From the NCBI GenBank assembly GCA_963755915.1, contig CAVWLP010000002.1, positions 896,001-960,000 on the forward strand: DNA of 64,000 bases, read 5' to 3'. This DNA is from an uncultured Phycisphaerales bacterium (GTDB taxonomy: Bacteria > Planctomycetota > Phycisphaerae > Tepidisphaerales > Tepidisphaeraceae). The notes beneath the pieces were generated by a model. That model did not search any database. It was not told the origin of the DNA and worked only from the letters and a program-made list of their open reading frames with translations. Positions 14,156-38,382 of the stretch are shown here, piece by piece. Positions within the stretch are counted from its first letter, which is position 1, and each line of letters starts with the position of its first letter. Made by a program: the position numbers and the translations under genes.

Positions 14156-14208
14156 CGAGGGGAATTGTAGATGCGGAATGCGGAATGCCAAATGCCGAAC
14201 CGCAGCCG

Positions 14209-14232
14209 GACTTCGGTGAGCTCAGTCGAACC
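14209..14232 (+). repeat. 24-nt hairpin micro-element copy
   Basis: GACTTCGGTGAGCTCAGTCGAACC, 22/24 identical to the copy at 35411. Confidence 0.85.
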
Positions 14233-14296
14233 GAGGCGAGGAGCGGTACTCCGCATAGGCCGGAGGCCGTCGGGCGGGACGCCCGCTTCTACACAC

Positions 14297-14329
14297 AAAA
14301 AGGCCCCGGTAATCCTTACCGGGGCCTTT
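14297..14329 (-). terminator. rho-independent terminator of the first Tad-like gene
   Basis: GGCCCCGGTAA-tcc-TTACCGGGGCC stem with A/T tails. Confidence 0.8.
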
Positions 14330-35070: not shown

Positions 35071-35207
35071 GGTGAGTTCCTTATTTCAATCCCATCGGCA
35101 GCGACGGCCGCTGATTTGCAATGGAGCATTTTCACGCCTGCCGGGGTGATTGACAATCCGGCGGGTATCCCCCTTTCTTCCCACTGATTAACCCTCTCGC
35201 GCAGCGT

Positions 35208-35237
35208 GTGCCGCCGGTGTCCCCACCGGCGGAATCC
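35208..35237 (+). repeat. REP-like palindrome (empty copy)
   Basis: GTGCCGCCGGTGTCCCCACCGGCGGAATCC. Confidence 0.75.
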
Positions 35238-35401
35238 TCGCTTAGCGCCGACCCAGCCGCAAGGGATAAGAAGAGGCCGAATTTGGCGTGAGACGGAATG
35301 GGACGAAATGGGACGGTTTTGCAGATATCTATTAGTGTATACTAACTAGCAGAATAATGTAGATTTTGGCGTACCGCACAAATATGAGGGGAAGAGGCGC
35401 G

Positions 35402-35455
35402 GTGCCGCCGGACTTCGGCGAGCTCAGTCGAGCCGTGTCCTCACCGGCGGAATCC
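35402..35455 (+). repeat. same REP-like palindrome carrying a 24-nt insert at 35411..35434
   Basis: Matches 35208..35237 (one substitution) apart from inserted GACTTCGGCGAGCTCAGTCGAGCC. Confidence 0.85.
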
Positions 35456-35482
35456 GGCGGAGATTAAGTTCTCCGCCCCATT

Positions 35483-35649
35483 TCAGTCATTCCCGTGCCA
35501 GAACCTGAGCGCGCTCTGGCAGCCGGTGGCGTTGTAACGGGCGCAGAGGTTTTTGATCGATTCGCCATCGTCGGTCCGAGCGTTTGCATTGGCGCCGTGG
35601 TGGAGGAGGAAGACCATCAGCTCCGTATCGCGGTTGGACACGGCGTAGG
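35483..35649 (-). pseudogene. 3' part of an ankyrin lipoprotein gene split by IS21
   Basis: YAVSNRDTELMVFLLHHGANANAR continues the ankyrin repeat cut at 38505. Confidence 0.8.
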
Positions 35650-35765
35650 TGTCATGGGGCGCACAAACCGGCCAATTGAGGGCGCGCCAAAACCGGCCAT
35701 TTTGAGGCACAGGAGATTGGGTTATCGACCTTGGCTTTCGGCGGTTGCCGCAAGCCAATGGTGGG

Positions 35766-37495
35766 ATGGCCAATCAACTCAAGATGGCGGAAGTACAAGC
35801 AATTTTGGCACTTGCGCAGCGGCTGGTCCAATCGGAACATCGCCCGCCAACTCGGCGTTCACCGGGAGACCGTTGGACGCCACATCCGGTTGTCGGGCGG
35901 CGATCCTGCGGCGCCCGGATCGGATTCAAAACCGGCCAGCGCGCCCCTCGGCTCGACGGTGCTCGCCGCAGGCGGCTCGACGGTGCTCGCCGCAGGCGGC
36001 TCGACGGTGCTCGCCGCAGGCGGCTCGACGGTGCTCGCCGCAGGCGGCTCGACGGTGCTCGCCGCAGGCGGCTCGGAGAGCGCGCCCACCGGGTTATCCG
36101 GCGCGCCCATCGGGTCGGTCAGTACGGCATCGCCCTGGCGTGAGGTCATTGTTCAGAAGTTGGAAGCCGGGCTGACGGCCCAGCGGATTTATCAAGACAT
36201 CTCCAGCGATCACGGCTATGCCGGCAGCTATTACAGCGTGCGCCGGTTCATCAAGAAGCTCTCGGCTGCCGCGCCGGCGCCCTTTCGCCGGATGGAATGC
36301 GAGCCGGGAGCCGAGGCGCAGGTGGACTTCGGCCGGGGTGCGCCCTGGTCGGTCCTGACGGCAAACGCAAAGCAACCTGGGTCTTCCGCATTGTGCTGAG
36401 CCACAGCCGCAAGGGGTACGCCGAGGCGGTGGAGCGGCAGACGACCGATGATTTTCTGCGTTGTCTGGAAAATGCCTTTACGCACTTCGGCGGGATGCCG
36501 TCAGCGCTGGTGATCGACAATCTTCGCGCGGCGGTGACGCGGGCGGACTGGTTCGAGGCGGAGTTGTGTCCCAAGGTCCGGTCGTTCGCCGAACATTATG
36601 GAATCGCCATTCTGCCCACCAAGCCGTACACGCCGCGGCACAAGGGGAAGATCGAGCGGGGCATCGGCTATGTGAAGAGCAATGCTCTCAAAGGCCGGCA
36701 ATTCGCCTCGCTCTCGGATCAGAACGCGCATCTGCTGACGTGGGAGAAGAGCGTGGCCGACACGCGCATCCACGGCACGACGCGGCGGCAGGTGAAGGAA
36801 GTCTTCGAGCAGGTAGAGAAGCCGGCACTGTTGGCTCTGCCGCCGGTGCGATTCGATCTTTTCACCGAGGCGTTGCGCAGTGTTCACCGCGACGGGCACG
36901 TGGAGATCAAGGGGGCGTACTATTCGGTCCCGCCGGAGTTTTTGGGCCAGCGGGTCTGGGCGCGGTGGGACGGCGCACGGTCCGGCTGTTCGATCAGAAG
37001 ATGCGTGCGATCGCTCTGCACGCGCAGCGTCCGCCGGGCAGGTTCTCGACGCAAGACGCCCATATCCTGCCGGAGAAGATCAGCGGCATCGAGCGTGGAA
37101 CGACCTGGCTTCTCCAGCGGATCGAATGCATCGGGCCGCACGCCACGCAGTGGGCGCAGTCAATGCTTCAGCATCGCGGCATCGAAGGCGTGCGCGTGTT
37201 GATGGGGCTGCTGTCGCTGGCCAATCAGCAGCCGCGACCGGCCGTGGAACGAGCCTGCGAGATTGCTCTGGGGCATGGCGCGTATCACCTGCGCTCCCTG
37301 CGGCAGCTCATCGAACACCAAAACGGTGCGCCGGTTCAACAACACTTCGAGTTTGTTCAGGAACATCCAATCATCCGCGGACTGGCCGATTACGGACAGT
37401 TCGTACGCGACGCAATCACCCAAGCGGAGGCTTTGCCTGCCGCACAACCTTTACAGGCCTGCCCTGAGCAGAGCCGAAGGGAGTCCACCCCATGA
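35766..37495 (+). CDS. istA: IS21 transposase (several frameshifts)
   Basis: HTH IARQLGVHRETV; EAQVDFG; VIDNLRA; KGKIERGIGYVK; RIHGTT; YYSVP. Confidence 0.88.
35950..36075 (+). repeat. five perfect tandem 24-nt units plus 6 nt inside istA (GSTVLAAG x5)
   Basis: GGCTCGACGGTGCTCGCCGCAGGC repeated without spacers. Confidence 0.95.
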
Positions 37496-38382
37496 GACCT
37501 TCGTTGATGCAGACGCTCAAGCAACTTCGGCTTTCAGGTCTGGCGAGCAGCCTTGAAGTTCGCCTGAGCGAGGCGGCCGGCAATCGGCTCGACCACAGTG
37601 AGTTTTTGGAACTGATCCTTCAGGATGAACTGAACGTCCGATCCAGCCGGCAGATCGGCCGGCGCGTCAAGGCGGCGATGTTCCGCGACACCAAAAACCT
37701 CGACGAGTTCGACTTCTCCTTCAACACCTCCATCAAACGCAAACAGATTCACGATCTGGCCGCCGGCCAGTTCATTCGTGACAAACGTGACGTGCTCTTG
37801 CTGGGTCCGCCCGGCGTGGGCAAATCGTTTTTGGCCCAGGCCATCGGACACCAGGCGATCAAGAGCGGCTTGGTGGTCCTGTACCGATCCATCTTCGACC
37901 TGGCCCGCGACTTTTTAGGCGACGAGGATCTGGGAGCCCAGGACAAGACGCTGGCCCGGTATCTCAAGCCTGATCTGCTTATCATCGACGACATGGGAAT
38001 GAAGCAGCTTCCGCGGCGCAGCGGCGAATGCCTGCTGGAGATCGTCATGCGCCGGCACGAGAACCGCTCGACGATGATGACCAGCAACCGTCCACTGGAG
38101 GACTGGGCCAAGCTGATCGGCGACGTGCCGGCGGCCACGGCCATTCTGGATCGGTTCCTGCAGCACGCCACGATCATCAACATCACCGGCAAGAGCTACC
38201 GCCTTCGGCATGGGGGCCATTCGACTTCGCTCACGGCAGGCCAATCCGGGACACCGGAAAAGACAAATCCAAAAGGACGGCGGAGTACCGCCGGCGATGA
38301 AGGGTGCTCCCCCCCGGAAGACACCGTGACAGAGCCGCCGTTGTCTTCTGATGTGGGGGTATCCGCCGGCCAGACGGCGTGA
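37492..38382 (+). CDS. istB: IS21 helper ATPase
   Basis: GPPGVGKS, LLIIDDMG, TSNRP, AILDRFL, GKSYRL. Confidence 0.93.
   Translation: MRPSLMQTLKQLRLSGLASSLEVRLSEAAGNRLDHSEFLELILQDELNVRSSRQIGRRVKAAMFRDTKNLDEFDFSFNTSIKRKQIHDLAAGQFIRDKRDVLLLGPPGVGKSFLAQAIGHQAIKSGLVVLYRSIFDLARDFLGDEDLGAQDKTLARYLKPDLLIIDDMGMKQLPRRSGECLLEIVMRRHENRSTMMTSNRPLEDWAKLIGDVPAATAILDRFLQHATIINITGKSYRLRHGGHSTSLTAGQSGTPEKTNPKGRRSTAGDEGCSPPEDTVTEPPLSSDVGVSAGQTA

Follow-up and report, generated by a model that had tools for sequence, protein, structure and literature searches.

Very small mobile repeats have been described in bacteria before. The small dispersed repeats (SDRs) of cyanobacteria, as Elhai et al. 2008 are said to have reported, are units of 21-27 nt that insert precisely and without flanking duplication, that occur in 7-nt tandem arrays and in other small repeats as well as nested in themselves, and that form a hairpin with compensatory changes; the same authors reportedly favoured a reverse-transcription or RNA route for them. 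Miniature inverted-repeat transposable elements (MITEs), for their part, have terminal inverted repeats and target duplications. According to the excerpts of the literature available to us, MITEs measure 70-300 bp (PMC3733652), SDR1-8 of the Nostocaceae are treated in PMC3116915, and SDR5 inserts precisely between two bases of HIP1 (PMC4390886). The same excerpts cover the repetitive extragenic palindromic (REP) sequences, which carry a GTAG or CGTC tag and sometimes lie in frame in genes (PMC3733652), the REP/REPIN repeats together with the RAYT (Y1, HUH) transposases (PMC3116915, PMC3733652, PMC6006769), and the Rickettsia palindromic elements (RPE), which are found in frame in protein-coding genes (PMC3733652). 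Here we describe a 24-nt unit, termed E24 (GACTTCGRYGAGCTCAGTCGARYC), that lies at positions 35411-35434 of a 64,000-nt stretch of DNA (the window; contig CAVWLP010000002.1, positions 896,001 to 960,000) from an uncultured Phycisphaerales bacterium, a soil organism whose genome (G000) comprises 6.63 Mb in three contigs at 59% G+C and, judged from shared repeats, stands nearest to Phycisphaerales MAGs among named genomes. E24 is very probably an independently inserting unit, and we consider it probable that it is a non-coding, non-autonomous mobile element that enters precisely 5′ of a G, with an active form that is probably single-stranded.

By description, E24 works like an SDR. It measures 24 nt as against 21-27 nt, inserts precisely without duplication, is also found in heptamer arrays, in other small repeats and nested in itself, and has a hairpin that is backed by compensatory changes. 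We do not count it as a member of that group, because the likeness is one of description only and its hosts are not cyanobacteria: whereas SDRs are found only in the Nostocaceae, in the wording of the part of PMC5861425 available, E24 is identical in many phyla outside the cyanobacteria, sits in frame inside genes, and is a poor candidate for an RNA route. With the REP/REPIN class it shares an imperfect palindrome of 24-25 nt (REPs span 20-40 nt), a short unpaired 5′ tag, a mostly extragenic location and a high copy number; both probably have a single-strand hairpin as their substrate, and three of the repeat families that host E24 (A, C and I, listed below) are themselves REP-like. Its tag, however, is GACU(U) and not GTAG or CGTC, each REP family is confined to its lineage whereas many phyla share one and the same E24, and, unlike a REP, E24 enters other repeats and itself as a bare 24-nt unit. 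Like the RPE, it occurs in frame in protein-coding genes. It resembles a MITE in being non-autonomous and probably moved in trans, but it is 24 nt long and has neither terminal inverted repeats nor a target duplication. Classification as a MITE was rejected on this size, on a filled/empty difference of exactly 24 nt and on the lack of any duplication beyond one ambiguous G; the initial annotation of the window, made from the letters alone, had proposed a non-autonomous micro-element far below MITE size, a view that the 24-nt unit, its many copies and its empty alleles now support.

The sites concerned in the window are these:

35208-35237, plus strand: empty copy of host hairpin family A, a REP/REPIN-like palindrome with a 9-bp stem; one of 24 empty family-A copies in the genome.
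35402-35455, plus strand: filled copy of host hairpin family A, with E24; 7 copies, this one included, have their 24-nt insert at GCCGCCG^GTGTCC.
35411-35434, plus strand: E24 itself (GACTTCGGCGAGCTCAGTCGAGCC), of the GGC...GCC subtype; its boundary is ambiguous by one G.
14209-14232, plus strand: second E24 copy, of the GGT...ACC subtype (a compensatory double stem change), with 2 mismatches and also after ...GCCG.

The empty site is a 30-nt hairpin (GTGCCGCCGGTGTCCCCACCGGCGGAATCC) with a 9-bp stem and a 4-nt loop, which, when folded as RNA, reaches z = -3.81 against 200 shuffles. A 30-nt palindrome present twice about 190 nt apart, its second copy enlarged by 24 nt without target duplication, and a 22/24 copy of the insert in a GCCG context had all been pointed out in the initial annotation, and each of these statements is confirmed. 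The two hairpins stand 194 nt apart from start to start, and the filled copy differs from the empty one by a single loop substitution (C to T) and by exactly 24 additional bases. The insertion point at 35411 can be read as CCG^G or one base rightward, with no target duplication beyond that single G, which is the only ambiguous base. A short series of 7-nt repeats (about 14163-14208) has the second E24 copy at its end. With up to 3 mismatches allowed, the window contains two matches to the 24-mer, where none is expected and where the maximum in 100 dinucleotide-preserving shuffles was 0; recurrence of the 30-nt hairpin was likewise seen in 0 of 100 shuffles. Short contigs from independent public runs agree, without a single difference, with the filled hairpin (35290-35474 and 35344-35494) as well as with the empty one (35193-35343), and the feature is therefore not an assembly artefact. 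Rfam yielded no family at or near it, even at E values up to 10.

E24 is a discrete unit that is dispersed through the genome, in some 60-80 copies. The further copies that a whole-genome motif scan was expected to reveal do exist: there are 20 exact copies, 58 within 3 mismatches and, with a tandem unit borne by an insertion sequence (IS) set aside, 72 within 4 mismatches, and nhmmer returned 82 matches of at least 18 bits. Their host contexts number at least ten and are unrelated to one another, among them the following:

Host family A: hairpin of the 35208-35237 type.
Host family B: a second hairpin, cccggaacgcccacg^gcgccgccgtgggg.
Host family C: a GTAG-tagged REP-like hairpin.
Host family I: the repeat GTCGCGGCTAAACAA, which flanks a Y1 transposase gene.
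Further hosts: several 7-nt repeat runs (cggcaat, cgcagag, gcggaat, gcgagtt).

Family A is represented by 24 empty copies, 7 filled copies with an additional 24 nt and 2 doubly filled copies with an additional 54 nt, the insert standing always at GCCGCCG^GTGTCC. For the 79 full-length copies of E24, flank pairs that recur in the genome are separated by exactly 0 or 24 nt, the exceptions being gaps of 54 nt (a nested 30-nt element), of 7 or 14 nt (heptamer arrays) and one case of 1 nt, and at least one exactly empty (gap-0) paralogue exists for 36 of the 79. According to a crude gene caller, 68 of the 82 copies are intergenic, many of them 10-100 nt from a gene end. The same caller left a 4.9-kb stretch (locus L202, C2:3505328-3510222) without called genes, with three E24 copies at one end and open reading frames (ORFs) of only 135-208 aa; the possibility that this gene-poor stretch is an rRNA operon was discarded, there being no Rfam match in the 5.5 kb scanned.

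E24 is also present or absent at orthologous sites. The congener G001 is collinear with G000, with ∼90% nucleotide identity in the flanks, and at 7 of the 38 listed G001 sites that were located in G000 the latter is exactly 24 nt shorter, one of these empty orthologues being the family-A hairpin at C2:552129. Of the remaining sites, one, in a heptamer array, differs by 24 plus 7 nt; both genomes carry the insert at 3, the spacer has been rearranged at 18, and for 9 no syntenic pair exists. The reverse case is found just upstream of the window, at C2:893437-893460, which is filled in G000 and empty in G001. The empty alleles that the initial annotation had looked to related loci for were thus found both here and within the genome, in family A. 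Spacer turnover between G000 and its nearest genome is very fast: compared with loci L152 and L146, the window spacers 14160-14290 and 35187-35700 hold entirely different small-repeat cassettes between adjoining genes that are ∼90% identical, and a terminator hairpin (about 14296-14325) beside one of the replaced spacers is identical in both genomes. In a sample of 41 genomes of the class (G000 included, and also G014, an unpublished genome without a match), the exact E24 pattern is found in 15. Within the genus 10 of the 12 other genomes hold it, at 0 to 42 copies per genome, elsewhere in the family it is present in 4 of 12, and in other families of the class it was found in 0 of 16; in an even sample of the phylum, 8 of 300 other genomes hold it, with 1-4 copies each. 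A reversed-pattern control gave 0 matches in the class, phylum and cross-lineage genome searches. The distribution of E24 is patchy, with bursts.

A length of 24 nt preserves reading frames, as had been remarked at the outset, and real genes with in-frame insertions of 8 residues bear this out. E24 is open in five of its six frames, and copies in long open frames of other genomes read DFGELSRA, TSASSVEP or LRRAQSS, with GSTELAEV on the opposite strand. At locus L025, in a metagenome-assembled genome (MAG) of the Chloroflexota, DFGELSRA interrupts a conserved block of a penicillin-acylase-family gene. A solved homologue shows an 8-residue gap at the insert, and the exact 8-residue gap is found in 39 of the 40 closest homologues (87-58% identity) from a collection of 5.8 billion sequences, the insert being confined among these 40 to a 99%-identical cluster. 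Because 39 of the 40 lack the 8 residues, L025 represents an insertion, not a deletion, and one into unique sequence. Other copies within genes lie in a RuvA linker, a photolyase, a phage terminase and a phage protease/capsid gene; the photolyase (L105) was rejected as a further example of a gap, the region being too variable for a clean one. In G000 itself, a gene for a GT41/SPINDLY-like TPR glycosyltransferase (L215, C2:3011959-3014649) carries a family-B hairpin together with E24 in frame, which adds ∼20 residues between two conserved blocks compared with the solved homologue 7y4i_A.

What goes beyond the initial annotation is that E24 is common to many phyla and nests in itself. A scan of one genome per species for exact GACTTCGRYGAGCTCAGTCGARYC located it at at least 121 loci in MAGs of many phyla, the labels among the listed matches including Planctomycetota, Verrucomicrobiota, Chloroflexota, Latescibacterota, Nitrospirota, Nitrospinota, Desulfobacterota, Acidobacteriota, Bdellovibrionota, Gemmatimonadota and others, and the records including complete chromosomes (6.2-7.7 Mb) and contigs of 0.4-2.8 Mb. 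A further 22 exact loci lie on 17 viral contigs. Exact copies number 99 in a Pirellulales MAG, 58 in a deltaproteobacterial MAG, 49 in Candidatus Amarolinea, 46 in a Terriglobia MAG and 3 in a Latescibacterota chromosome. Apart from E24, only 11 pairs among the listed loci share sequence, and, going by record titles, all of these pairs fall within one phylum or genome except L020/L070. These two loci are 99% identical over a shared 462 nt including E24, yet their MAGs are labelled Bryobacteraceae and Tepidisphaeraceae, a discrepancy probably due to misbinning of one of the two. A larger conserved parent element around E24 was considered and rejected, because, L020/L070 aside, the listed loci share nothing beyond E24 across phyla. 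At 14 of 139 sites with unique flanks in other genomes, E24 lies within another E24, in either orientation and at a few preferred positions; insertion is the sole possible origin of such nests.

The same 139 flanks define the target. The base after the insert (+1) is G at 135 sites, +2 is C or T at 115, -1 is G or A at 107 and -2 is C at 76, which gives the consensus C-R^G-Y; E24 thus has a target preference, and it inserts beside a short fixed sequence without target duplication. As E24 itself begins with G, its boundary is ambiguous by one base, and an element of 23 nt with a 1-nt duplication is an equally valid reading. Flanks that can form stems of at least 6 bp occur at 29 of the 139 sites, whereas 200 permutations average 4.9 such sites and never exceed 11, so that hairpins are preferred as targets and not required.

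The stem of E24 covaries. Among the 75 copies from G000, the pair 9/22 is T-A in 37, C-G in 37 and T-G in 1, and the pair 8/23 is G-C in 63, A-T in 6, T-A in 1, G-T in 2 and G-G in 3. Positions 10-11 with 20-21 form an invariant tandem G.A/A.G, positions 14-16 are variable, and in the 5′ tag GACT (GACU) positions 1-2 are invariant in 75 of 75 copies and position 3 in 71 of 75. Pairing in the stem model amounts to 98.8% as against 90.1% in shuffles, and 0 of 1000 shuffles reach the observed value. The minimum-free-energy pairing of the GGC subtype was set aside, since covariation supports another pairing and its own score does not exceed that of shuffles. In other genomes 35 G.T pairs stand against 12 A.C pairs, an excess that shows the strand as written to be the one that folds and that points to a single-stranded active form. 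Each of the variants that keep the stem has multiplied into many identical copies, so that propagation seems to require the stem.

E24 has a companion in the same genome. The apical part of E24 is an insertion site of a second micro-element of ∼30 nt, YCTTCGRGYCTGAGCCTCAGRGYCGAAGRC, which in addition has its own host hairpin family (ccccctcccc...ggggagggg), is found in heptamer arrays and in one case lies within a copy of itself. It comes in two subtypes with paired changes. G000 also has a triple nest, at C2:701050-701076. Its sites are:

C2:1776493, C2:4032562, C2:4212620, C2:2525191, C3:819018, C3:219319, C3:222291 and ∼20 more places: copies of YCTTCGRGYCTGAGCCTCAGRGYCGAAGRC.

A mechanism can be sketched from these sites and variants. 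E24 enters DNA as a precise unit directly 5′ of a G, with a target duplication of none or at most one base; it has done so many times over in separate lineages, and it lands often in hairpins, REP-like palindromes, 7-nt repeat runs and other E24s and sometimes in frame in a gene, adding 8 residues. Its active form would probably be a single strand of the polarity written, with a 5-nt tail (GACUU), a 4-bp stem (positions 6-9 with 22-24 and the following G), tandem G.A/A.G mismatches beyond the stem and a short variable apical part, and we infer a trans-acting enzyme, encoded by the host or its mobilome, that would cut and join single-stranded DNA. The IS200/IS605 elements and their non-autonomous derivatives offer a parallel in their lack of target duplication, their precise ends, their strand-specific hairpin and their insertion beside a short specific sequence; unlike E24, which has one hairpin in 24 nt and a target of little more than one G, they have a hairpin at each end and span hundreds of bases. 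Y1 (HUH) transposases fit the chemistry of E24, with a hairpin substrate, no duplication and precise ends, and Y1_Tnp is present in every E24-rich genome examined. An HUH/Y1-type nuclease-ligase is accordingly the leading candidate for the mobiliser, one that we put forward tentatively and hold to be less likely than not, because Y1 genes are also found in E24-free relatives, are not adjacent to E24 and are not shared across phyla. G000 has two Y1 genes, which are IS200-like or RAYT-like: L145 (C3:576500-576694) and L144 (C3:1125127-1125471). The former is flanked by inverted copies of family I (GTCGCGGCTAAACAA) in a REPtron-like arrangement, and E24 lies inside 2 of the ∼14 family-I repeat copies.

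Several observations weigh against an independently mobile E24 moved by such an enzyme. Y1_Tnp genes occur in 36 of the 41 genomes of the class sample, E24-free relatives included, and their presence is therefore uninformative. We looked at 14 Y1 loci, namely 12 that rank among the best Y1 matches in five genomes with E24 (46-99 copies in four of these, 3 in the fifth) and 2 in G000: E24 lies within 1.5 kb of only 1 of them, as a single copy, and none is flanked on both sides, so that the HUH/RAYT gene flanked by the motif that the initial annotation had suggested looking for did not appear, a point on which E24 also differs from the REP/REPIN-RAYT systems. No closely similar Y1 protein is common to different phyla, the best cross-phylum pair being 40% identical, and the Y1 and RVT_1 profiles examined did not identify a mobilising enzyme. 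Neither window site has a clean empty orthologue in the nearest genome, because both intergenic spacers are wholly replaced there. The subtypes of E24 correlate with host repeat families, and many copies may therefore go back not to separate insertions but to spread of the host repeat or to gene conversion between family members; in G000, these processes surely account for some of the copy number, and the independent insertions in this genome may be nearer 10-15 than 80. The orientation of E24 relative to neighbouring genes is unbiased (26 sense versus 22 antisense). Taken alone, E24 folds unremarkably (z = 0.11 and 0.78 as RNA, -0.48 and 0.30 as DNA), and the covariation counts treat copies as independent, their kinship being ignored. 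The GC skew of G000 is irregular and too noisy to reveal a replication-strand bias of the kind that ties the orientation of IS200/IS605-type elements to the replication fork, the copies not being mutually independent, and the low-depth run contigs showed neither joints across E24 nor any insertion or excision polymorphism, the data being uninformative on excision.

Four other explanations were weighed against a mobile E24 with a single-stranded DNA form. E24 could instead pass through an RNA intermediate, a transcript that a reverse transcriptase would insert or copy and that recombination would fix, which we judge unlikely. The tolerance of G.T (G.U) pairs in the stem far above A.C pairs (35 versus 12) and the strand specificity of the structure would suit this route, and G000 holds 15 RVT_1 matches, 12 of them identical copies; G.T pairs are, however, tolerated equally in single-stranded DNA hairpins, and the even split of 26 and 22 shows no bias in orientation to genes. 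RVT_1 was moreover not found in 7 of the 12 congeners searched, among them G001, G006, G011, G012 and G009, which hold 42, 22, 15, 8 and 8 exact E24 copies, respectively, an argument tempered by the fact that the genomes without a match scored 59-92% complete. The 12 identical reverse-transcriptase ORFs of 474 aa, which lie on C2 and C3 (e.g. C2:345371-346042), are probably a recently expanded group II intron.

It is rather improbable that E24 is not self-mobile at all and is an optional module of REP/REPIN-like hairpin families, which would have entered each family on rare occasions and would now be spread and lost through amplification of the host repeat and gene conversion. The subtypes do track host families, with family C having its own loop variant and all 7 family-A inserts being GGC...GCC, multi-copy host repeats (families A, B and I) account for most of the in-situ differences in filling between G000 and G001, and the host hairpins look mobile, family I flanking a Y1 gene, family A occurring in inverted pairs and family B in a GT41-family gene. 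An optional module nevertheless leaves unexplained the insertion into unique coding sequence that is missing from 39 of 40 homologues, the 139 different cross-phylum flanks with nothing else shared, the nested copies (14 of 139) and the shared +1 G (135 of 139), and the homologous arms available for gene conversion would be only about 10-25 nt.

We find it quite improbable that E24 is mainly a functional module, such as a protein-binding or transcript-stabilising hairpin with its tandem G.A, kept by selection and horizontal transfer. Such a role could account for exact sequence conservation across phyla, for the covarying stem and for the 68 of 82 copies that are intergenic, many of them 10-100 nt off gene ends, where terminator and REP-type hairpins lie. 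It fits poorly with the equal frequency of both orientations to genes, with copies inside genes, inside E24 and inside an IS, with a copy number that ranges from 0 to 42 in one genus and with the lack of an Rfam match, and the subfamilies of identical copies are better explained by propagation from a few master variants. Finally, an artefact of assembly, binning or library construction is scarcely credible: all cross-phylum matches do lie in MAGs, and the pair L020/L070, labelled as two phyla, and one match in an archaeal MAG (L085) make some binning errors likely, but the matches stand on long contigs and complete chromosomes of different phyla, each copy with its own flanks, independent run contigs reproduce the window hairpins and the reversed-pattern control is 0 everywhere.

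Beside the filled hairpin, the window contains an IS with an E24-like repeat inside it:

35731-38382, plus strand: IS21-family insertion sequence (istA in pieces, with HTH and rve; istB); HTH_23, rve, Mu-transpos_C_2 and IstB_IS21 matches.
35949-36075, minus strand: tandem array of 5.3 units of the 24-nt unit GCCTGCGGCGAGCACCGTCGAGCC, 20/24 identical to E24.

The GCCTGCGGCGAGCACCGTCGAGCC array keeps the stem and the G-A core of E24 and lies in frame within istA (35731-37202), whose reading of the opposite strand yields GGSTVLAA repeats; 30 arrays of this type, of 1-12 units each, are present in the genome. From its sequence, this unit looks like a relative of E24 that the IS picked up and that afterwards grew into a variable-number repeat. 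IS21-type DDE enzymes generate target duplications. The IS21-family element is context and not likely the mobiliser of E24, and the initial annotation's remark that no mobilising enzyme is visible in the window holds, the sole nearby transposase genes being those of this DDE-type, duplication-making family.

E24 is real, and largely as the initial annotation inferred, and it is probably undescribed. In the literature searched there was no occurrence of the 24-mer, its reverse complement or three of its encoded peptides, and among work on very small mobile elements and on nested or heptamer repeats only papers citing Elhai et al. 2008 matched. It is among the smallest mobile DNA elements seen. 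Whether E24 and its 30-nt companion stand for a class of self-nesting mobile hairpins of 24-30 nt that extends beyond cyanobacteria and circulates, its sequence unaltered, among at least 6-7 phyla, and that would be moved in trans by an activity on single-stranded DNA, appears to us evenly poised.

How elements of ∼20-30 nt move has been an open question since the SDRs were described in 2008, and the confinement of those repeats gives little comparative leverage. E24 is identical across phyla and varies from 0 to ∼100 copies even among close relatives, so that a search for the enzyme by phylogenetic profiling becomes tractable, and its filled/empty pairs allow the chemistry to be defined, with a cut before G and no duplication. 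If this reading is true, the cutting-and-joining activity that mobilises E24 would itself be widespread or horizontally mobile, and E24 would rank as the smallest mobile DNA known to occur across phyla and would naturally supply proteins with in-frame insertions of 8 residues. Such elements remodel terminator and REP hairpins and add 8-residue loops to enzymes, and in genome annotation they give rise to spurious short ORFs and alignment gaps.

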